Source: an uncultured delta proteobacterium (GTDB taxonomy: Bacteria; Desulfobacterota; Binatia; UBA9968). Taken from it: a stretch of 64,000 nucleotides of DNA. The notes below the pieces were generated by a model. It had not been told where the DNA came from. It searched no databases and worked only from the letters and a program-made list of their open reading frames with translations. The translations under genes and the position numbers were made by a program. Of this stretch, positions 15,731 through 25,756 are shown in pieces; within the stretch, counting starts at the first letter, position 1; each line of letters begins with the position of its first letter. Location of the stretch: contig CAVSHR010000004.1 in assembly GCA_963727625.1 (NCBI GenBank), positions 1,248,001 through 1,312,000 on the forward strand, in the 5' to 3' direction.

Positions 15731-16156
15731 ATGGGAAGCGCGCCGGCAAAGCTCACCAACGTCACCTCGTACCGCGTGATCTATGGCGACACCGACCAGA
15801 TGGGCGTAGTCTATTACGCCAACTATTTGCGCTGGTTCGAAAGGGGCCGCTCGGAGTTTCTGCGCCAGATCGGTTTACCCTATTCAATCGTCGAACGTCA
15901 GGGCGTGCACTTTCCTGTGCTGGAAGTGACCTGTTGTTACACGCAATCCGCCCGCTACGACGACTTGATCGAAATCGCTACCGATTTGGCGGGGATTGGG
16001 CGCGCCTCTTTAACATTCAACTATCGCATCTCGCGCCCGGCTGATCAGTGCATCTTGGCCACCGGAGCCACCAAGCATGCGTCGCTCGATAGCTCGGGCA
16101 GGATCGTGCGAATACCCAAGATCTTGGTCGATGCCATTAGCGCCGCTGGTGGTTGA
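15731..16156 (+). CDS. YbgC/4HBT family acyl-CoA thioesterase
   Basis: RVIYGDTDQMGVVYYANYLRWFERGR hot-dog motif. Confidence 0.88.
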   Translation: MGSAPAKLTNVTSYRVIYGDTDQMGVVYYANYLRWFERGRSEFLRQIGLPYSIVERQGVHFPVLEVTCCYTQSARYDDLIEIATDLAGIGRASLTFNYRISRPADQCILATGATKHASLDSSGRIVRIPKILVDAISAAGG

Positions 16157-16165
16157 GCCGGCAGA

Positions 16166-17332
16166 TTAGCGCAAGTCCCCCGCCGTTGCCACGCTGATCG
16201 CGCCATTGATTTCATCTTGAACTTCGCCGTTGACTTCGACCCGCAATCGCCTTTGGAGTGCGTCGAGCATCGAGCGCAAGCCGATCTGTCCCAGGGCCCA
16301 AGCCGCGTGCCCGCGCACCAAAGGCTCGTCGTCATCGAGCGCGCGAATCAACGCCGCCTCGGCTTCCACGGACTTGAGATTGCCGAGAGCCACCGCGACG
16401 TTGCGCAGTAGTCCCCGCCGTTTCGCACGGAGAATCGCGCTGCCGCGGAAGCGCCGGCGAAACTCCTCCGAAGTAAGGGCTAAAAGCCCGATCAACTCGG
16501 GCGCGTGCAAACCGGCTCTCGGCTGGAATGCAGTTTCGGCGCTGGCCGGAGCTTTTACGTTGTACGGGCAAACTTCCTGGCAAATGTCGCAGCCGAAAAT
16601 ATGATTGCCGATCAGCGGCCTTAGATGCAGCGGAATCGAACCTTTTAATTCGATGGTCAGATAGGAGATGCAACGCCGCGCATCGAGCAGGTAGGGTCCG
16701 ATGAACGCGCCGGTCGGACAGGCCTTCAGGCAAAGCTCACAGCGACCGCACCGATCACGGACCGGCCGGTCATAGACGAGCGGCAGGTCGAGAAATAACT
16801 CACCCAGAAAAAACCATGAGCCGCGGCGCGGCGAAATTAGATGTGTGTTCTTACCAATCCAGCCGAGCCCGGCAACACCAGCCAGATCCCTTTCCAATAC
16901 CGGACCGGAATCGACGAATGCGCGCCCTTGCACCGGTCCGCCATGCAATTTTGTGATGTGATCGAGCAACTCATCGAGCCGGCGCCTAATCAAATCGTGA
17001 TAGTCATCGCCCCAGGCATAGCGCGAGATCCAACCGCTCGATCCGCCGCTTGGATCGGGACGTGGTAACGGCTTGTAATAATTCATGCCGACCGAAACCA
17101 CGGAGGCGGCCCAGGGCACCAAGATTTTTGGATCGCGCCGGAGCATCTCGGTCCGTTTCATGTAAGCCAACTCGCCGGCCAGCCCCCGGCGCAGCCAGCG
17201 CGCGAAGGATTCCTCGTGCGCCGGCAGCTGCACCGCCGAGATACCGACCAGCTCGAAGCCCAACCCTTCAGCCGTTTCCTTGATGCGCCGAGACAGCTTG
17301 GCAACGACCTGCTCAGGGAAATGGTTCATCAC
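16166..17332 (-). CDS. queG: tRNA epoxyqueuosine reductase with C-terminal HEAT repeat
   Basis: SRYAWGDDYH, VDSGPVLER, GWIGKN, CGRCELCLKACP, CISYLTIE, GCDICQEVCP. Confidence 0.95.
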   Translation of the reverse strand: MMNHFPEQVVAKLSRRIKETAEGLGFELVGISAVQLPAHEESFARWLRRGLAGELAYMKRTEMLRRDPKILVPWAASVVSVGMNYYKPLPRPDPSGGSSGWISRYAWGDDYHDLIRRRLDELLDHITKLHGGPVQGRAFVDSGPVLERDLAGVAGLGWIGKNTHLISPRRGSWFFLGELFLDLPLVYDRPVRDRCGRCELCLKACPTGAFIGPYLLDARRCISYLTIELKGSIPLHLRPLIGNHIFGCDICQEVCPYNVKAPASAETAFQPRAGLHAPELIGLLALTSEEFRRRFRGSAILRAKRRGLLRNVAVALGNLKSVEAEAALIRALDDDEPLVRGHAAWALGQIGLRSMLDALQRRLRVEVNGEVQDEINGAISVATAGDLR

Positions 17333-17414
17333 CGAATTCTATTTGCCCTTTTACCGATCGACAAGCACAGGCCCGGCTCGTAGCACCGCGATTTCGCCAC
17401 GGCCAAGGACCGAA

Positions 17415-17864
17415 TTAATGATAGGAGACGTTGTCGTCAGGATCGGAGTCTTCACCATCAAGCAGCGGTTTACGCCCGGCGAAACCGTCTTCGATGCGAT
17501 GCCAAAAACTCACGGTCGGTTCGCCGATCTGCCAACAAAGAAAAACCACCTCGGTGCCGAGCATGCAGGGAAAGTCGATCAACCCCTGCTCCACGCCCTT
17601 GCACACACAGCCATAGGCGTTGACTTCGTCGACCCAGCCGGTGACCTGTCCGATGAGTTTGGCGATCTCGCCGTCCTCGCGAAGCCGGTTCATGAGATTG
17701 GGCGCCTCGGGGTCGAGATGCTCTCTGCGGATCGTCGTTTCACTGGTGCTCTTCAAGCGCCGAACATTTTCGAGAATCTGTTCGACGAGCGGGCGCAGCT
17801 TGGGCAACAATGCGTTGGCTTCGTTGACGGTAAAAAGCCGCGGGTAATTAGGCGAAAAAACCAT
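17415..17864 (-). CDS. DUF2203 family protein
   Basis: FTVNEANALLP, KG..QGLIDFP, LCWQIGE, FWH..EDGFAGRKPL. Confidence 0.85.
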   Translation of the reverse strand: MVFSPNYPRLFTVNEANALLPKLRPLVEQILENVRRLKSTSETTIRREHLDPEAPNLMNRLREDGEIAKLIGQVTGWVDEVNAYGCVCKGVEQGLIDFPCMLGTEVVFLCWQIGEPTVSFWHRIEDGFAGRKPLLDGEDSDPDDNVSYH

Positions 17865-17925
17865 GAGCAGATGCTTCCATCCAGTGAATCTTTAATTCGC
17901 GCCGTCTTTTTTCGACCCGCCGCCG

Positions 17926-19224
17926 TTACAGATTCATACCGCTGCGAATCTGCTTGAGCAAGGCGATGTTATCCGAGTGGCCGGTCATACAGGCTGAAAT
18001 CGCGCCGCGGAGCGGCCGGCCGAGCAGATAGAAATCGCCCAAAATATCCAAAATTTTATGGCGCGCGAGTTCATTGGCGAAGCGCAAATCCGTATTGATG
18101 ATTTTATCGTCGCCGATGATGATGCAATTGTTGAGCTTGCCGCCGCCCGCCAAGCCCATGGTTTGCAGTTTTTCGATATCGCGCATGAACCCGAAGGTGC
18201 GCGCCGGGGCAATTTCCGCTTTGAAAAAATCCAGCCCTTGGAACTGGTAGGTGTGCTCTTGTTCGCCCACCGGCTCGGGATAGCGCAACAAATAATGCAC
18301 CGAAAAAGATTCCGCCGGCGCGATGCTGATCGACTCGCCGTTCTTGGTGTGGATTTCGTACGGTTGGTCAATGACGATCTCGGTACATTGTTCGGACTGC
18401 TCCTCGATACCGGCTTCTTCGATCGCCTGACAAAACTCGATCGCCGACCCGTCCATGATTGGCACTTCGCCTTGGACCTTCACGAGCAAATTAGTGATCC
18501 CATAACTGTGCAGCGCGGCGAGAAAATGCTCCACGGTCCCCACGGCAAAACCCTTGGAACGCAACGAGGTTGCGTAGCCGGTTGAGCCGACGTAATCAAG
18601 GTGCGCCGGCAGCGTCACGTCGCCGGAAATTCCGGTAAACAAAACGCCGCGATTGGCCGGTAGCGGATGGAGAATCAAGCCGGTTTTGACACCCGAGTGA
18701 AGCCCCTGTCCGGAGAGCACCACGCTTTTTTTCAGGGTCTTCTGTTTGATCGCCTGCGAGGCCGCGCCGTCTCTCGGCGCCGCCGTCTTTGTTGGCCGGC
18801 CTTTGCGCGTCCCGTTCGCCGGTTTTTTATGCGCTTCAGTTCCCGGCATCGGGCCGAGAGCGCGCTGCACCGTGAGCAAAAGACCCTCCAGCGAAACCGG
18901 CTTTTCGATGAAGTCAAAAGCGCCGAACTTGGTGGCGGTCACAGCGGTGTGAATATTGCCATGCCCCGAAACCATCACGACGTTGATCGCCGGTTCTTCG
19001 GTTTTAATCTCCCTGAGTAAGCCGATGCCGTCCACCTGGGGCATCCAGATATCCAGCAAAACCAATTCCGGTTTCTCTTGCTTGATCATCTCCAGCACGC
19101 GGGTGCCGTCGGCCGTATCGACGACCCGGTAACCTTCGTCGGTCAAGACCTCGCGCACCGATTCGCGCACGCCGTCTTCGTCGTCGACGACTAGAATCGT
19201 TTTTTGCGTAATCAATTCTTCCAC
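17926..19224 (-). CDS. lpxC: Response-regulator receiver domain fused to UDP-3-O-acyl-GlcNAc deacetylase LpxC
   Basis: aa ~7-122 REC (VVDD, LLDIWMP, SGHG, FIEKP); aa ~161-432 LpxC (QKTLK..GQGLHSG, TVEH, EVPIMDGSA, ARTFGF, RHKILDILGD, GH); one ORF with GGAGG RBS. Confidence 0.92.
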   Translation of the reverse strand: MEELITQKTILVVDDEDGVRESVREVLTDEGYRVVDTADGTRVLEMIKQEKPELVLLDIWMPQVDGIGLLREIKTEEPAINVVMVSGHGNIHTAVTATKFGAFDFIEKPVSLEGLLLTVQRALGPMPGTEAHKKPANGTRKGRPTKTAAPRDGAASQAIKQKTLKKSVVLSGQGLHSGVKTGLILHPLPANRGVLFTGISGDVTLPAHLDYVGSTGYATSLRSKGFAVGTVEHFLAALHSYGITNLLVKVQGEVPIMDGSAIEFCQAIEEAGIEEQSEQCTEIVIDQPYEIHTKNGESISIAPAESFSVHYLLRYPEPVGEQEHTYQFQGLDFFKAEIAPARTFGFMRDIEKLQTMGLAGGGKLNNCIIIGDDKIINTDLRFANELARHKILDILGDFYLLGRPLRGAISACMTGHSDNIALLKQIRSGMNL

Positions 19225-19245
19225 TCATCCTCCTGGGAAATCGGT

Positions 19246-21477
19246 CTAAAAAATTGCCGCCTTCTGGGCGATCTCATCGACGCTGGCGTCAGCGCCCACT
19301 GGAAATTCAACGGTAAAGCGGGTCCCCCTCGGCTCGTTGGGCCAAGCGCGGATGTAACCGCGATGGTCTTCGATGATTTGACTGACGATCGTCAGGCCCA
19401 GACCCGTGCCGTTCTCCTTGGTGGAAAAATACGGTTCAAATATTTTTGTCCGGATCTCCTGCGGCAAACCGCAACCGTCGTCGGCCACTTCCAGCGTTAC
19501 AACGCCGCGCGCCGGGTCATAGACCGTCGCCAGCTTGATCTCGCCTTGGCCTCTAACCGCCGCCACCCCGTTGTCCAATAGGTTGATCAACACACGCTTG
19601 ATTTGATCCCGGTCCAATTCAAGGGGCGGGATCGGCCCGGCGCGAAAATGGAAGTGAATGCCGTGATGGGCTTCTTTAAACAACACCAGAGCGTCCCGGA
19701 CAATCTCGTTGAGGTCGTTCGGCGCAAGCTGTGCCGACGGCAAGCGGGCAAACTGGGAAAATTCATTGACAAGATTTTTGAGCTCATCGACTTGCTGGAT
19801 AATCGTGCTCGTGCACTTGTCCAGGATCGCGCCGTCGCCTTCGAGCATTTTGGCGTAGCGTTTACGCAGCCGCTCCGCTGATAATTGGATCGGCGTCAGC
19901 GGATTTTTGATTTCGTGGGCGATGCGCCGGGCCACCTCTCGCCAGGCTTCCATGCGCTGGACCTTTTGAATTTGCGTGATGTCGTCGACAAACAACATCA
20001 CGCCCAAAATCGCGCCATCGTCGTCGCGTAGCGTGGCCGCGCTGACCAAAAGAGTTAGCAAGCGGTCCAACAGCGAGAGCTTGATCTCCTTCTCAACGGT
20101 TTCTCGCTCCACCACGCTGTCAACAATCTCGCGAATCTCGCGCAGCGCTTCGGCGCGAAAAACCTCGCGATAATTTTTTCCCAGCGCGTGATCGGCTTGC
20201 ACCGAGAGAATTTGCTCGGCGGCCTTATTCCAGGTGGTAATTTTGCCCGCCGGATCGACGGATACGACCCCTGCCGCAATATTGGCAAGCAGCGTTTCCA
20301 CCACCTTGCCGCGTCGCTCGAGTTCCAGCTTGATCTGCTTGAGATCACCGGTCATATGGTTAAACGAGTTCATCAGCACGCCGATTTCGTCGTCGCGGCC
20401 CGACTCGATCTTGTAATCCCAGTTTCCCTGCGCCACCTCGTGTGTGCCTTCCGCCAGCTTCTGGATCGGCACGGTAATGCCCTTTGAGAGATAGATGCCG
20501 CACCAAGTCGCCGCGAAGATGATCACCAATGTCATCAACAGCATCGTCAGAATATAGCTGTTTTTGACCGGCGTCTTGAGAAAAGTCAGATACTTGTACT
20601 GCTCGTAGGATTGTGAAATCTGCAGTGCCTGTTTGGAAATGCTCTTCGGCACGTAGTCATCGACCACCACGACGCCGCGAATGCGTCTATCGCGGTCATA
20701 GAGCGGCACGCCGCTGCGGATCACATCGCCGTCGCCGAAAACTTCCGTGCGTGTCACTTCCAGACCACGCAGTGCCCGGTCGAGAAATTCCGCTTCCGGC
20801 TTGATGACCTCGCCGGTCGGTACTTGCCGGTTAAACGCGACCACTAAGGCTTTACCGTTAGGCAAGAACACCTCTACGGTGCCGAGGTTATACTCACGCT
20901 GTTTGGCTTGAAGGAATTCTTTCAGCGCTGCCGTGCGTTGGGGATCGAAGAGACCATCGTCGGTAATCCGTTGGCTCAACTGTCGGGCATAGAAAATCGC
21001 GTTATTTGCCGAGTTTTGATAATAGGTCTGACCTATTTCCAACGAGCCCTGCAGCGCGCTTTCAACTTTGGAATCGAACCACCGGTCGAAAGACCGAGTC
21101 AACAAGCCGCCCGCGATAGCGAACAGCAGAACGCTCGGCACCAAGGAAAGCGAAACGAAAGCTAAAACCAAGCGCACTTGCAGGCGCGAACCGAGAATAC
21201 GCTGTTTGCGTTCGACGATCAGCTTGATCAAATTGCGCACAACGAGAAAAACCAGCAGACCGAGAAGAATAATATTGACGTTGATCAACAGGAAGAAAAT
21301 GATATTGCTGCCGGTGGAATTTTCCGGCGACACGTCGGGCAACTGAACTTCGAAATAAATGAGCGTGGCGACCATCAACGCGGTGACCAGGATGACGATC
21401 GCTTCGCGTTTGCGGCGCTTGCTTTCCTCCCGTTTGAGAGTCTCTTCGACGAACGTGGCGGAATTTGAGTTTGGCAT
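19246..21477 (-). CDS. NtrY-like membrane sensor histidine kinase (HAMP-PAS-HisKA-HATPase)
   Basis: N-terminal TM helices, periplasmic domain, HAMP ([14 protein letters not shown]), [27 protein letters not shown] (NtrY H-box), NLLDN, DDGCG, GTGLGL. Confidence 0.92.
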
Positions 21478-21518
21478 CGGCTATCCGGCGCTAAGGGCCT
21501 GGAAAATTTAGGAAAAGT

Positions 21519-21731
21519 CTACCTTCTAAAGAAGTAAAGGACAAGCGACACGATGACGCTGATCAAGATGCAAGTGGCAATTGGAAAATAAAAGGAATAG
21601 CGGCCGCGCTGGATCCCAATATCGCCTGGCAGATCGCCGAGCCAGGGCAGCTTGCCGGCGAGCGAAAAAATCACACCGACAACCACCAAGAACAGTCCAA
21701 GGTAAATAAGAGTCTTGCCGAATCCAGCCAT
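21519..21731 (-). CDS. DUF2905 small membrane protein
   Basis: LGDLPGDI, FYFPIATCILIS. Confidence 0.85.
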   Translation of the reverse strand: MAGFGKTLIYLGLFLVVVGVIFSLAGKLPWLGDLPGDIGIQRGRYSFYFPIATCILISVIVSLVLYFFRR

Positions 21732-21784
21732 ATAACTAGGCTTTAAATGGAATGAATCGCCATGGTTTCGCGTGCCAAACGCAT

Positions 21785-22810
21785 CTAGAACAACGTCGGT
21801 TGTTTTCTCGGTGCGCCGCCCGCCGAAACGTTTGATTCGCGACCGAAATGATCGAAGGCCAGCCTGGTGGCGACCCGGCCGCGCGGCGTCCTCTGGATGA
21901 ACCCGGCTTGGATGAGAAAGGGCTCATAAACATCTTCGATGGTGTCCTTTTCCTCACCGATTGCCGCGGCCAGGGTCTCTACCCCGACCGGTCCGCCGGC
22001 GAACTTGTCGATCAGGGTGAGCAATAACATCGTGTCCATTTTGTCCAGCCCGAGCCGGTCGACTTCAAGCATCTGTAGCGCTTGATCGGTCACCGCTTTG
22101 GTGATCGTGCCGTCGCTTTTGACCTGAGCGTAGTCGCGCACGCGGCGCAGCAAGCGATTGGCAATGCGCGGTGTGCCGCGCGCGCGCGACGCGATCTCCG
22201 CGATGCCATCGTTTTGCTCGCGCACGCCGAGAATCGCCGCGGAGCGCTTGAGGATTAGAGACAGCGCCGCGCTGTCGTAAAAATCCAGACGATGAATATG
22301 GCCGAAACGATCGCGCAACGGAGAGGTTAAGAGTCCTGAACGGGTCGTAGCGCCGATGAGAGTGAATTTTTTTAACTCCAATTTGATCGATCGCGCCGCG
22401 GGCCCCTGGCCGACCATGATGTCGATCTGGTAGTCCTCCATCGCCGGATAGAGCACTTCTTCCACCACATGGTTCAAGCGGTGAATTTCATCGATAAAAA
22501 GAATATCGCCTTCTTCGAGATTGGTCAGCAGCGCCGCCAGGTCACCGGGGCGCTCCACCACCGGACCGGAAGTTGCCCTGATGTTCACGCCCATTTCACG
22601 CGCGATGATGTACGCCAACGAGGTTTTCCCGAGCCCCGGCGGCCCGTGAAACAAAATATGATCGAGCACGTCGCCGCGCTTACGCGCCGCGGCGATCGCG
22701 ACCTTGAGAATGGCCTTGACCTGCTCCTGGCCGACATACTCATCGAACGCGCGCGGGCGAAGGTTGACCTCGTAAGTTAGATCTTCTTCAGTTTTATTGC
22801 CGGTCAGCAT
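21785..22810 (-). CDS. ruvB: Holliday junction branch migration helicase RuvB
   Basis: [41 protein letters not shown]. Confidence 0.98.
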
Positions 22811-22844
22811 GGGAATAAGGTCGGCACGAATTCGGCCAAGCGCG

Positions 22845-23438
22845 CTACGGGCTCATGCGCCGCAGCGCTTCTTTCAAAACGTTTTCCAGTGAACTCTCGC
22901 CCCGCTTGAGCACTTCGCCGACCCTCTGTTCAGCCTCAGTTCTTTTATACCCCAGATTGACCAGCGCCGAAACCGCATCCAGCATCAGCTGCGACCCGCC
23001 GTCCTGCTTTGCGCTCGCCGGCGCGGCCGGAGCCAGCGTGGCAAGTTTATCCTTGAGCTCGACGATCATGCGCTCGGCAAGCTTCCTGCCCACGCCGGGT
23101 ATCGCCACCAAGCGAACCTGATCACCTTCTTTTAAAGCCCGAGCTAATTCTTCCACCGCAATACCAGATAGAATATTGACTGCGAGCCTTGGACCGATTC
23201 CCGAGACACTGAGCAGCAGCAAAAAGAGCTGTTTTTCGCCCGGATCTTGAAAGCCAAAAAGCTGAATCGCGTCCTCGCGCACATGGGTGAAAATTTGCAG
23301 GCTCACCGAAGCCCCGACTTCAGGCAACCGATAAAACACGTTGAGCGGGATGAACACCTGATAGCCCACGCCGCCGACGTCGACAATGATTTCGCCGGGA
23401 ATCTTTTGGGCTAATCTGCCGCTGATTTGCGCAATCAC
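22845..23438 (-). CDS. ruvA: Holliday junction DNA-binding protein RuvA
   Basis: [43 protein letters not shown]; GTG start 23438. Confidence 0.95.
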
Positions 23439-23481
23439 GTTGACATCAAAAAAGGCAACGAAACGGCGCTCCGGGGAAGGC

Positions 23482-24075
23482 TCACCGCCGGGAAGCCGTT
23501 TCGCGATAGTTGCGCCAACTGGCCGCCTTAGCGCTACCGGGCAACGACCGCACCAGTAGGTTGTCAAATTTACGCCGGTGGATATGGCAGATCGCTGCCG
23601 CCAGAGCGTCGGCGGCGTCCGCGCGCAGCGCACCGCGCAAACATAACAGCGCGCTCACCATTTTTTGCACCTGCGCCTTGGTCGCCTGACCGTAACCGAC
23701 CACCGCCACCTTGATTTCCGCCGCCGAATACTCAGCGACGTCTATTTGATTTTCCGCCGCCGCCAGCAAGGCCACGCCGCGCGCTTGGCCGAGCTTCAGG
23801 GCGCTTTGCACGTTGCGGGAAAAAAATACTTTTTCCAGGCTCACCGCCGTGGGTTGACAGTGTTCGATGATCTCCCGCAGACCGCGATAAATCCCGCTTA
23901 AGCGTTCCGCAATGCCGAGCGACGCGGGCGCAGCGATGGTTCCATGGGAGTGGCAATGAAGCTGATTCGCGTTGACTTCGACCAAGCCCCAGCCGGTGAC
24001 AAGGGAGCCCGGGTCGATACCGAGAATGATTTCGCGATGGAGCCGCCTGGCGCTGCTCTTTAGCGTCGGCGTCAC
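23482..24075 (-). CDS. ruvC: Crossover junction endodeoxyribonuclease RuvC
   Basis: ILGIDPGS, LEKVFF, LGQARG, GYGQATKAQV, DAADALA. Confidence 0.96.
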   Translation of the reverse strand: MTPTLKSSARRLHREIILGIDPGSLVTGWGLVEVNANQLHCHSHGTIAAPASLGIAERLSGIYRGLREIIEHCQPTAVSLEKVFFSRNVQSALKLGQARGVALLAAAENQIDVAEYSAAEIKVAVVGYGQATKAQVQKMVSALLCLRGALRADAADALAAAICHIHRRKFDNLLVRSLPGSAKAASWRNYRETASRR

Positions 24076-24079
24076 TTGT

Positions 24080-24826
24080 TCAACTCGCCTTCTCCATCAA
24101 TTCGGTGGGAATATTGAAGTTCGCAGAAACGCTTTGCACGTCGTCGTGGTCTTCGAGCTCTTCGGTAAGCTTCAAAATCTGCTCGACATGCTTGGCGTCG
24201 ACATCGACCGTGTTCTTCGGCACGAGAGTCACCTGGGCATTGGCCGCGGCAATTTTTTCCTGATCCAGGCGGTCTTTAACCGCGGCGAAATCTTCCGGCG
24301 CGGTGACGACTTCGAACATATCGTCCTCTTCGCGGACATCCTCGGCGCCGGCTTCTAGAACGATTGCCATCAGCCGCTCTTCGTCGACCTGCGATTTCTC
24401 GACCGTGATCAGTCCCTTGTTATCGAACATCCAGGCGACGCAACCGGTCTCGCCCATGTTGCCGCCATGTTTGGTAAAGAGCCGGCGAATTTCCGAAACC
24501 GTGCGATTCTTGTTGTCGGTTACAACCTGCGCGATGATCGCCGCGCCGCCCGGCCCATAGCCTTCGTACTGAATTTCTTCATAGGTAACCCCTTCAAGCT
24601 CGCCCGTACCTTTCTTAATTGCCCGCTCGATATTATCGTTCGGCATGCTGTTGCTGCGCGCCGCCAGCACCGCCGTGCGCAAGCGCGGGTTGGCATTGAT
24701 ATCGCCGCCGCCCATGCGCGCCGCAACGGTAATTTCTTTTATGAGCTTGGTGAAGACCTTGCCCTTTTTTGCATCCTTGGCAGCCTTCTTATGCTTGATC
24801 GTGCTCCACTTCGAATGACCGGACAT
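24080..24826 (-). CDS. yebC: YebC/PmpR family protein
   Basis: [37 protein letters not shown]. Confidence 0.96.
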
Positions 24827-25099
24827 AACTTAAACCTTCCCTTTGAATTCGCTGGTAAAGTAACACAAACGACTTGCCGGGTAAACCATGTGCAGACTCC
24901 ATTACCCCTTATCCACACGACTGAAACAATCACCAGCCGTGCCTGCGATCGCGGTCGACGCACGCCGGGTTTTATCATGCAAAAATAAATGACTGCGATT
25001 GAATGGTGCAGTTTACTTTTTTCTCGCCGCGTTTTTCGCTATACTTCGGCCACGATGGGCTGTGTAATCACGTCACGCATGACTCCCGTCGGCTCTCCA

Positions 25100-25756
25100 A
25101 TGCCGTCGCGTCTTAAGCACGCGCCTCTGTTTTTTATGCTCTTGCTGATTCTGGGTTGTTCGATACCACCGAGCAAGGTTCGAGTCCCGGAGCGGTATAC
25201 AGCTCAGTTAAGCCAAACCGGAATCGCCTCTTGGTATGGCCCGGGATTCCACGGCAAAGCCACCGCCAGTGGCGATATTTATAATCAGAACGATCTGACC
25301 GCAGCGCACCAAACCCTGCCGCTCGGCACCCGTGTCATGGTCACGAACCTGGAAAACGGCCGTGCCGCCGAAGTGACCATCAACGACCGCGGTCCTTTCG
25401 CGAAAAGCCGTATCATCGATCTCTCCTATTCAGCGGCGCAATCACTCGATATGGTCGGACCCGGCACAGCGTTGGTTCGCGTCGACGTGATCGATAGTCC
25501 GACCAAGATTCAAACCATCCGTTCTTCTCTCGATTACACGCTGCAACTGGGTTCTTTCGCGCAACTCGAAAACGCCCAGCAGCTGCGCAATCGCCTGGCA
25601 AAATCATTCCGCGACGTGGTGATCGCGCCGTTACTGTCCAAAGACGCCACCTACTACCGGGTGCACTTGGGAAAATTTGCCAGCCGCTCGGATGCCGAAG
25701 AGCAGGCACGGCAGGTGTCCCAAGCCGGCTATTCGGTCATCATCATGGAGCAGTAG
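25100..25756 (+). CDS. rlpA: Septal lytic transglycosylase RlpA with SPOR domain (lipoprotein)
   Basis: Lipobox ILGC, GIASWYG, TAAHQTLPLGT, INDRGPF, RIIDLS, C-terminal LQLGSF SPOR. Confidence 0.9.
   Translation: MPSRLKHAPLFFMLLLILGCSIPPSKVRVPERYTAQLSQTGIASWYGPGFHGKATASGDIYNQNDLTAAHQTLPLGTRVMVTNLENGRAAEVTINDRGPFAKSRIIDLSYSAAQSLDMVGPGTALVRVDVIDSPTKIQTIRSSLDYTLQLGSFAQLENAQQLRNRLAKSFRDVVIAPLLSKDATYYRVHLGKFASRSDAEEQARQVSQAGYSVIIMEQ

Follow-up and report, generated by a model that had tools for sequence, protein, structure and literature searches.

A receiver domain fused to the only LpxC of a Binatia genome suggests that a two-component signal can act on the enzyme itself

Introduction

Lipid A synthesis is controlled at LpxC, a long-pursued antibiotic target whose regulation beyond the enterobacterial FtsH/LapB route is largely open. 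The closest described links between a two-component system and this enzyme act on its gene. NtrYX affects the envelope and lowers lpxC transcripts both in Rhodobacter sphaeroides, about nine-fold and indirectly (PMC7240162, in its available text), and in Caulobacter crescentus (PMC12444477, in its available text). In Desulfovibrio vulgaris, lpxC is the single mapped target of the sigma54 regulator DVU2934, and the orthologous regulator operon of Syntrophobacter fumaroxidans has lpxC immediately upstream of it (PMC3333781, in its available text). Here we analyze a stretch of 64,000 nucleotides (nt) from an uncultured soil bacterium of the Binatia lineage (assembly GCA_963727625.1, contig CAVSHR010000004.1, positions 1,248,001 to 1,312,000), hereafter the window, which encodes an LpxC carrying an N-terminal response regulator receiver domain, next to an NtrY-like sensor histidine kinase. 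This arrangement suggests that a signal can act on the LpxC enzyme itself.

Myxococcia show an enrichment of LpxC genes with predicted sigma54 control, according to the accessible part of PMC12316311. A 2025 review on lipid A regulation describes, in the part that was available, two-component effects on lpxC at the transcription level only, not specific to LpxC, and the words "fusion", "fused" and "response regulator" do not occur in it (PMC12444477). The only LpxC fusion that we found in print is LpxC-FabZ/FabA (bioRxiv 10.1101/2025.10.16.682753, available text), which agrees with an earlier note on this DNA, made from its letters alone, that named FabZ as the known partner. The same note knew of no description of a receiver-LpxC protein, and we also found none in the full-text literature, whose coverage leaves most subscription journals outside; as far as found, the domain pair is catalogued in precomputed Pfam annotations and undescribed in the literature.

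Results

The receiver-LpxC protein

The earlier note had described a 743-amino-acid (aa) NtrY-type kinase followed after 21 nt by one 432-aa open reading frame (ORF), and its description of the window genes proved correct in every particular that could be checked. The ORF list contains both frames, with the fusion downstream of the kinase and 21 nt between the kinase stop codon and the fusion start. The receiver matches Response_reg (PF00072, E 3.9e-31, 107.9 bits vs a cut-off of 30.2) and, as had been claimed, it is NtrX-like and has all five phospho-site residues (D14, D15, D58, S86 and K108). Its best NCBIfam match is NtrX (NF051870), at 131.8 bits vs a cut-off of 600 and over model positions 3-120 only; RssB scores 83.5 bits, and the CheB match (69.5 vs a cut-off of 293) also covers the receiver alone. 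By sequence, the closest solved receiver relatives are PDB 4d6x (5.9e-28) and 5m7n (8.1e-27), both of which we take to be Brucella NtrX. No AAA+ or helix-turn-helix (HTH) family is found among the Pfam matches of the fusion, in line with the note; the protein is NtrX-like in its receiver part only and lacks the receiver-AAA+-HTH layout of a full NtrX.

The C-terminal part matches LpxC (PF03331, E 9.6e-83, 278.2 bits vs a cut-off of 27) and exceeds the cut-off of the TIGR00325 lpxC equivalog (252.5 vs 187 bits). Its TVEH, HKILD, GH and ARTFGF motifs align with the same motifs of the solved Pseudomonas aeruginosa LpxC, and the catalytic and zinc residues reported as intact are indeed present: E232 and H233 in TVEH, H389, K390 and D393 in HKILD, D397 and H416, and also T343. 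In Escherichia coli numbering we take the zinc and catalytic residues of LpxC to be E78, H79, H238, D242, D246, H265, T191 and K239. The protein ends 6 residues past the Pfam LpxC match and therefore has no long C-terminal tail, as the note had also observed. An AlphaFold2 model of the fusion built with 65 homologues has a mean predicted local distance difference test score (pLDDT) of 87.6 and a predicted template modeling score (pTM) of 0.86, with linker residues 127-153 disordered (pLDDT <50). Its LpxC part fits solved LpxC chains with target-normalised template modeling (TM) scores of 0.84-0.95 and a root-mean-square deviation mostly of 1.4-2.3 A. The model of a 46%-identical homologue (L105) has a pTM of 0.91.

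The genome of the window (6.6 Mb, 15 contigs, 98% complete) has a single LpxC match, which is the fusion gene, and it encodes LpxA and LpxB elsewhere on the same contig. As the sole LpxC of a genome with LpxA and LpxB, the fusion is a predicted UDP-3-O-acyl-GlcNAc deacetylase, and judged by gene content it is the housekeeping LpxC of the cell. A search of this genome for another lpxC or for ntrX, as the earlier note had proposed, found neither: there is no NtrX orthologue, and none of the 16 full-length sigma54-type regulators reaches the NtrX cut-off. LapB model NF008757 scores at best 47 bits in this genome vs a cut-off of 363, which is weak evidence given that the model is tuned to gammaproteobacteria. 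A LapB candidate turned out to be RadA; the Zn_ribbon_LapB Pfam model behind it is unspecific and also matches Gram-positive controls. No DUF4390 match was found in the genome either, a result of little weight since control genomes gave no match.

Reality of the fusion

In a search of 5.8 billion proteins we found at least 120 clusters (90% identity) that are 75-100% identical to the fusion and come from four data sources, with both Pfam domains in all those listed. Because the same architecture is present in all 120 listed clusters, it is far beyond chance. Within the same order, the fusion is full-length and in one frame in 34 of 41 genomes (own genome counted, single-contig assemblies included), so that its presence in relatives, on which the earlier note had staked its reading, is confirmed; six genomes have it truncated where a contig ends or divided between two contigs. 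The remaining one (G019, same genus, 91% complete) has receiver-level matches only (best E 6.8e-23), and its lack of an LpxC-level match could be an assembly gap or a real loss. One of the 41 genomes, G005, is unpublished and contributes one row each to the genome survey and the locus comparison, and nothing else.

The note had also proposed to map reads across 18750-18860. Among public reads no RNA run was listed, and two soil DNA runs (each 0.05 of sampled words) gave short fragments, mostly below 95% identity with one at ≥99%, and none bridges the linker; because of this, support for the junction is taken from the independent assemblies, which do back it. That the ORF is a chimera or a mis-join of two genes is thus a reading with practically no probability left, and already refuted. 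Nothing speaks in its favour, the two runs without bridging contain only short conserved fragments of other organisms, and the same frame recurs not only in the clusters and related genomes mentioned above but also in 57 diverse fetched loci. As a separate observation, the fusion is split by frameshifts in contigs L046, L055, L056 and L067 of metagenome-assembled genomes, and the same happens to ruvB in L014 and to the kinase in L053 and L056. These frameshifts look like assembly indel errors and not like pseudogenes, because unrelated genes in the same assemblies are split too.

Residue constraint

Constraint was counted in 79 short-form (receiver-LpxC) proteins, whose identity goes down to 32%. 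Of these, 78 retain the phospho-acceptor D58 and one has Asn in its place; D15, S86 and K108 are present in all 79, whereas D14 is Asp in 76 and Glu in three. On the enzyme side E232, H233, H389, K390, D393, D397 and H416 are invariant in the 79 proteins, and T343 is T in 77 and S in two. The linker is unconserved and spans from ~20 to 80 residues across 65 homologues. From these residue counts, a working phospho-switch and a working enzyme are evidently both under selection.

The kinase and its linkage to the fusion

All five Pfam domains of the kinase are above cut-off, namely NtrY_N (37.8 bits vs 23.2), HAMP, PAS, HisKA and HATPase_c, an architecture that agrees with the NtrY type assigned in the earlier note. 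The protein has four hydrophobic segments (24-47, 54-90, 99-130 and 303-332) flanking a ~170-aa loop, and the H-box histidine of its HisKA domain is His521. Since it reaches no NCBIfam equivalog cut-off (the best is AtoS, 274 bits vs 646), the name NtrY-like is used here without a claim to orthology. No second NtrY_N match was found in its own genome. Across Binatia-type loci this kinase is 69-89% identical and syntenic, and it is 38-47% identical, over its full length, to kinases encoded beside standalone lpxC in other lineages.

Linkage was counted in fused loci with at least 2.3 kb of upstream sequence (n=94; 13 more are too short to judge), and the kinase is directly upstream in 52. By group, it is upstream in 32/33 short forms and 3/4 long forms of the named loci L012-L058, and in 17/17 loci of families f4-f8, f81, f14, f43 and f61 of a phylum sample described below.

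Putative precursor loci

Desulfobacterales-like and Syntrophus-like loci present a state with separate genes: a standalone lpxC (~300 aa), DUF4390 (shown for L100), the kinase and then a sigma54 regulator of receiver-AAA+-HTH_8 layout, with 49-58% identity between its receiver and that of the window. The gene ruvB adjoins the lpxC-kinase-regulator locus in L070 and L101, as in the window, and therefore ties the rearranged loci together. We also observed a DUF4390 gene at L100:5072-5776(-), directly upstream of an NtrY-like kinase and between it and a standalone lpxC, and DUF4390 genes at L182:3223-3807 and L184:3616-4212, each before a kinase without adjacent regulator.

In the 400 nt that precede lpxC, a sigma54-type -24/-12 element was called when at least 8 of 11 positions matched, GG and GC being obligatory. 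Such elements precede standalone lpxC in 7 of 17 loci (L069, L070, L075, L079, L101, L171 and L173; e.g. TGGCAT-N5-TTGCT) vs 272 of 3000 random windows from the same loci, although the loci are mutually related and this is not a clean statistic. In five of the seven loci the distance from the element to the LpxC domain start is 47-90 nt. The elements agree with sigma54-dependent transcription of lpxC in lineages that encode the regulator separately. For the window kinase and fusion, the best upstream score is 5/11, the background level. In this sense, the comparison of loci suggests that the regulatory link to lpxC precedes the fusion.

Long forms and proposed origin of the fusion

A second state is represented by long forms of 685-795 aa with a receiver-AAA+-LpxC layout (L051-L054; L090-L094; L145-L162). 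The kinase is upstream of long forms in f14, f43, f61 and Nitrospinota. Most of these phylum-sample genomes have just one match at 1e-40, so that the long form seems to be their only LpxC as well. In an AAA+ alignment of 12 long forms and five true regulators, a Walker A-like GExGxGK and the sensor-II stretch WPGN(V/I)KELK are retained in the long forms, whereas GAFTGA has been replaced or deleted and the RVGG arginine-finger stretch is missing. Instead of the Walker B Glu the 12 long forms have R, K, A, S, G or V, while the five true regulators keep both GAFTGA and this Glu. The Sigma54_activat score is 48-113 bits in fused long forms vs 224-235 in two true regulators. NtrX likewise is not known to carry GAFTGA. 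It follows from the motif losses in the long forms that the AAA+ of the long form cannot contact sigma54, and it is probably without ATP hydrolysis. Just before LpxC, seven of the 12 long forms (from f52, f61, f43, f85 and f14) keep a stretch that aligns with HTH_8 of true regulators. We call this remnant HTH-like only, because its Pfam matches are sub-threshold (20.6 bits vs a cut-off of 22 in long form L094); one cluster has HTH_8 among its precomputed annotations.

An IQ-TREE phylogeny of 112 LpxC domains groups all 83 fused domains in a single clade (SH-aLRT 100), whose stem measures 1.3 changes per site. These 83 comprise 57 short forms, 25 long forms and one without detected receiver; the remaining domains are 24 standalone LpxC and five LpxC-FabZ. 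Near-duplicate Binatia loci (9 of ~45 kept), the frameshifted L046, L055, L056 and L067, own-genome copies and L003-L011 were left out. Standalone LpxC of the same phylum are closer to Pseudomonadota LpxC than to the fused clade. The fusion therefore would have arisen once with a burst of change, or it is very old. Short and long forms interleave in this tree. We had first read the interleaving as multiple independent losses of AAA+, and this was withdrawn, since a single long-form clade is not rejected by the approximately unbiased (AU) test (p-AU 0.444). In a receiver tree (127 rows, 118 columns) none of the 10 rows from own-genome regulators falls inside the clade that holds the fused receivers, and the next clade out has a support of 94.

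From the two other states, separate genes and receiver-AAA+-LpxC, the regulator appears to have become fused to the enzyme whose gene it once controlled. An ancestral locus of lpxC, DUF4390, ntrY-like kinase and sigma54 response regulator would have controlled lpxC transcription. The whole regulator would then have joined end to end with LpxC, its sigma54-related AAA+ and HTH parts would have decayed, and a deletion would have left receiver, linker and LpxC in the window lineage. We infer this order, and the direction of evolution with it, from domain logic and not from trees. The earlier note had suspected that a recent deletion of the AAA+ part of ntrX could explain the ORF. Such a loss probably happened, but because receiver-AAA+-LpxC forms exist it is not a recent accident; it would be ancient and part of the origin of the family.

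Spread across lineages

Of 300 other genomes sampled evenly across the phylum, with matches sorted by query range and frame length, 75 carry the fused form, about a quarter. The whole query is matched in 37 of them. The other 38 match from about residue 115-161 onward (E ≤1e-85) in frames much longer than plain LpxC, 13 of 450-497 aa and 25 of 554-837 aa. In 192 genomes only the LpxC part is matched, with frames of ~290-430 aa among the matches listed (121 unlisted), and 33 genomes of the sample have no match at 1e-40. We fetched 69 of the 75 fused candidates and ran BLAST and Pfam on them. All 11 members fetched from the 450-497 aa set have the receiver-LpxC layout and a longer linker, and 22 of the 23 fetched from the long set have receiver, Sigma54_activat, AAA_lid and LpxC, L154 being without a detected receiver. 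Contigs L051-L054, from Nitrospinota, carry the long form.

A search with one long form also returned at least 120 clusters, with receiver, Sigma54_activat, AAA_lid and LpxC in 119 of 120 listed and no receiver in one 561-aa cluster; their source names read "NtrX" in some cases and "LpxC" in others. When a short-form profile was compared with 1.84 billion representatives (50% identity), the best 150 matches included 22 full-length short forms and 15 long forms. A peculiar case is genome G074, which holds both a very divergent receiver-LpxC (L099:3465-4781(-), 42% identity, end branch 1.75) and a standalone LpxC (G074:C33:20144-20962). Among the fused receivers, that of L099 alone falls outside the main receiver clade; the case may reflect relaxed constraint after duplication or transfer.

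Layout of the window locus

The features of the locus are collected in Table 1. In Binatia-type loci the order ruvB, kinase, fusion, DUF2203 and queG is conserved, and DUF2203 follows the fusion in nearly all of those reaching that far; with the window query it was not detected in other lineages. No functional link is evident between the DUF2203 and QueG genes and the fusion. A same-strand cluster upstream of the kinase, 21785-24826(-), presumably encodes a YebC-family regulator, RuvC, RuvA and RuvB, by its translations and motifs, and RuvB alone of these served as a BLAST query. A 255-aa ORF at 24989-25756(+) we take, also by its motifs, to resemble an RlpA-type lytic transglycosylase with a C-terminal SPOR-like region. 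A promoter and terminator scan of 16000-23000 gave 4 vs 2.9 +/- 1.7 and 12 vs 8.8 +/- 3.5 in shuffles, respectively, which is not above the shuffles.

Table 1. Features of the kinase and receiver-LpxC locus, in positions of the window
Feature	Position	Strand	Evidence
NtrY-like sensor histidine kinase, 743 aa	19246..21477	(-)	ORF list, Pfam, NCBIfam
Receiver::LpxC fusion, 432 aa, GTG start	17926..19224	(-)	ORF list, Pfam, NCBIfam, homologues, model
Shine-Dalgarno-like AGGAGG, 4 nt before the GTG of the fusion, within the 21-nt gap	19229..19234	(-)	sequence reading
Receiver (REC) domain, fusion residues 10-119; D14/D15 acidic pocket, D58 phospho-acceptor, S86, F105, K108	18868..19197	(-)	Pfam
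Low-complexity linker rich in Ala/Pro/Gly/Thr/Lys, fusion residues ~124-157	18754..18855	(-)	pLDDT, composition
LpxC (UDP-3-O-acyl-GlcNAc deacetylase) domain, fusion residues 161-426	17947..18744	(-)	Pfam, TIGR00325
DUF2203 protein, 149 aa, after the fusion with a 61-nt gap	17415..17864	(-)	Pfam DUF2203, E 2.8e-34
Epoxyqueuosine reductase QueG, after the DUF2203 gene with an 82-nt gap	16166..17332	(-)	

Discussion

A putative switch on the enzyme

We propose that kinase and fusion work together as a two-component system in which the enzyme itself would be the response regulator. The membrane kinase would sense a signal, via its ~170-aa loop or its cytoplasmic PAS domain, autophosphorylate on His521 and pass the phosphate to Asp58 of the tethered receiver; the phosphorylation state of the receiver would then set UDP-3-O-acyl-GlcNAc deacetylation, and thus the flux into lipid A, without a transcription step. 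We infer the phosphotransfer and its effect on LpxC, and consider it rather probable, given the conserved residues, that phosphorylation controls LpxC function post-translationally in some way.

As to how, our favoured but tentative sub-mechanism is a CheB-like docking switch. The receiver would pack on the catalytic domain in one state and release or repack in the other, thereby changing access to the active site or the acyl-chain tunnel. Phosphorylation of the Asp by a histidine kinase changes the alpha4-beta5-alpha5 face of a receiver. By the definition of pTM, a receiver without fixed position making up 28% of the chain would cap this score near 0.65. Because the models of the fusion and of its homologue reach 0.86 and 0.91, they seem to place the receiver confidently on the enzyme, which favours docking.

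Control of stability stays attractive as another explanation, because E. coli uses proteolysis and neither a LapB nor a C-terminal tail was found here. Like RssB or CpdR, the receiver would serve as a degron or protease adaptor that depends on phosphorylation, and the kinase would set the level of LpxC by proteolysis, replacing the FtsH/LapB route. LpxC of E. coli is controlled mainly by regulated proteolysis according to the available texts of PMC12444477 and PMC3333781, and a flexible unconserved linker suits a tethered degron. We still regard this as unlikely, since the receiver is closest to the NtrX/NtrC type and not to RssB (131.8 bits for NtrX vs 83.5), the high pTM values of the two models speak for a fixed contact within the molecule, the conserved neighbourhood has no protease partner, and the absence of LapB carries the weakness of its model. 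A LapB homologue has also been proposed to place LpxC at the inner membrane in Neisseria meningitidis (PMC12444477, available text). In a similar manner, the receiver could hold LpxC on the membrane kinase near lipid-linked partners, with phosphorylation releasing or recruiting it and the catalytic rate unchanged; the kinase encoded next to the fusion is polytopic and a long flexible tether suits a recruited enzyme. This localisation or scaffolding role appears quite improbable to us, as kinase-receiver contacts are normally transient, the strict conservation of the whole phospho-site exceeds the needs of a docking handle, and the pTM suggests confident packing of the receiver on LpxC.

The flow of information might also be reversed, with the LpxC domain sensing substrate or product load and tuning the receiver phosphate, and the protein serving as a phosphate sink or feedback for a kinase with another target. 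The HTH-like stretch persists in longer relatives, and some members might therefore still bind DNA while carrying LpxC. Yet the window kinase has no second regulator beside it, nor its genome an NtrX orthologue, the window protein has no output domain but LpxC, and invariant catalytic residues in a sole LpxC would make catalysis the essential role; we give this reading very little credit. Just as little do we give to the receiver being a relic, no longer phosphorylated and kept as a passive N-terminal domain for folding or solubility. The AAA+ and HTH parts have clearly decayed in relatives, the kinase is unlinked in 12 families and one of the 79 short forms has Asn at the acceptor position. 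A relic would not hold the full phospho-site, however, and D58 in all the others and D15, S86 and K108 in every one are retained down to 32% identity; kinases without adjacent regulator also persist in four of five genomes where the genes are apart.

Post-translational control of LpxC by phosphorylation of its receiver is thus the reading that we retain, and several points weigh against it or against its details. The variable, unconserved linker argues against rigid allosteric coupling, and would fit several mechanisms equally. The docking argument, in the models, is drawn from a single summary number, the pTM, and not from visible contacts. The conservation next to NtrY that the earlier note expected holds in the Binatia-type loci, among others, but is not universal: the kinase is upstream in 0/40 loci of 12 of 21 families (f9, f19, f21, f39, f42, f54, f58, f65, f91, f52, f63 and f85). 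When five genomes with kinase and fusion apart were searched for NtrY_N kinases, G095 (96% complete) showed none. The other four encode one elsewhere, three of them 43-46% identical to that of the window over the full length and one 32%; none of these four has an adjacent response regulator, and two are preceded by DUF4390. A lone kinase, together with a fused regulator without adjacent kinase, is the picture expected of a pair working in trans. Concerning the origin, short forms occupy the weakly supported basal branches of the fused clade, and the trees leave the number and direction of short/long changes unsettled. The receiver clade with 82/83 fused receivers and all 15 kinase-adjacent regulators has a support of 74 and also holds five other regulators. 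The presumed orthology of the standalone-lpxC loci to DVU2931/DVU2934 is taken from the description in the paper and not from sequences. Finally, no cultured carrier of the fusion was identified.

Every computational test named in the earlier note for its interpretation, sensing-to-LPS (lipopolysaccharide) control, came out in favour, with the reservations that kinase linkage is not universal and that the AAA+ loss is ancient. As far as sequence analysis reaches the interpretation is supported, and the putative precursor and intermediate forms extend it. A broader proposal, whose chances we judge to be evenly balanced, is that a diderm clade (Binatia, at least 15 further families of the phylum, and Nitrospinota) swapped sigma54 control of lpxC for a regulator-enzyme fusion, so that a histidine kinase gates the committed step of LPS synthesis via the receiver of LpxC, and that the sigma54-blind, hydrolysis-dead AAA+ of the long form may assemble LpxC into phosphorylation-dependent rings.

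If true, this would be a mode of LpxC control without described counterpart. A receiver on the sole LpxC of many lineages would offer a clean in vitro model, with one kinase, one substrate protein and one enzymatic read-out, that could show how a cell tunes outer-membrane synthesis to a signal. Furthermore, the loci would constitute an unusually complete natural series, in which a transcription factor is joined to the protein encoded by its target gene and its DNA-related parts are then lost.

Comparison with known systems

The FtsH/LapB (YciM) route of E. coli uses a C-terminal degron and an adaptor, whereas the window fusion has no tail and its genome no LapB match. LpxC-FabZ of Bacteroidota, which we also saw in L065, L066, L068, L071 and L082, is another natural LpxC fusion, but its partner is C-terminal and metabolic, not signalling, and its LpxC domains lie outside the fused clade; the window fusion does not reach the LpxC-FabZ model NF009667 (217 bits vs a cut-off of 465). 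The NtrY/NtrX pair of alphaproteobacteria shares the kinase architecture, and NtrX is the best match of the window receiver. However, NtrX is a DNA-binding regulator with dozens of targets, acting indirectly on lpxC in R. sphaeroides, and the window fusion has no AAA+ or HTH, its output being the enzyme.

The DVU2931/DVU2934 system of D. vulgaris is a two-component link dedicated to lpxC, in a related group of bacteria, whose gene order in S. fumaroxidans matches the lpxC-DUF4390-kinase-regulator loci found here, and whose control, unlike that of the fusion, is transcriptional via sigma54. CheB and other receiver-enzyme regulators have the same succession of receiver, flexible linker and catalytic domain. 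The unphosphorylated receiver of CheB blocks its active site. The CheB output domain is unrelated to LpxC, the CheB NCBIfam model matching only the receiver part of the fusion, and CheB acts on chemoreceptors and not on a biosynthetic committed step. A response regulator with enzymatic output is therefore a known kind, and what is new in the window fusion and its relatives is the LpxC output, the sole-copy status and the evolutionary series.

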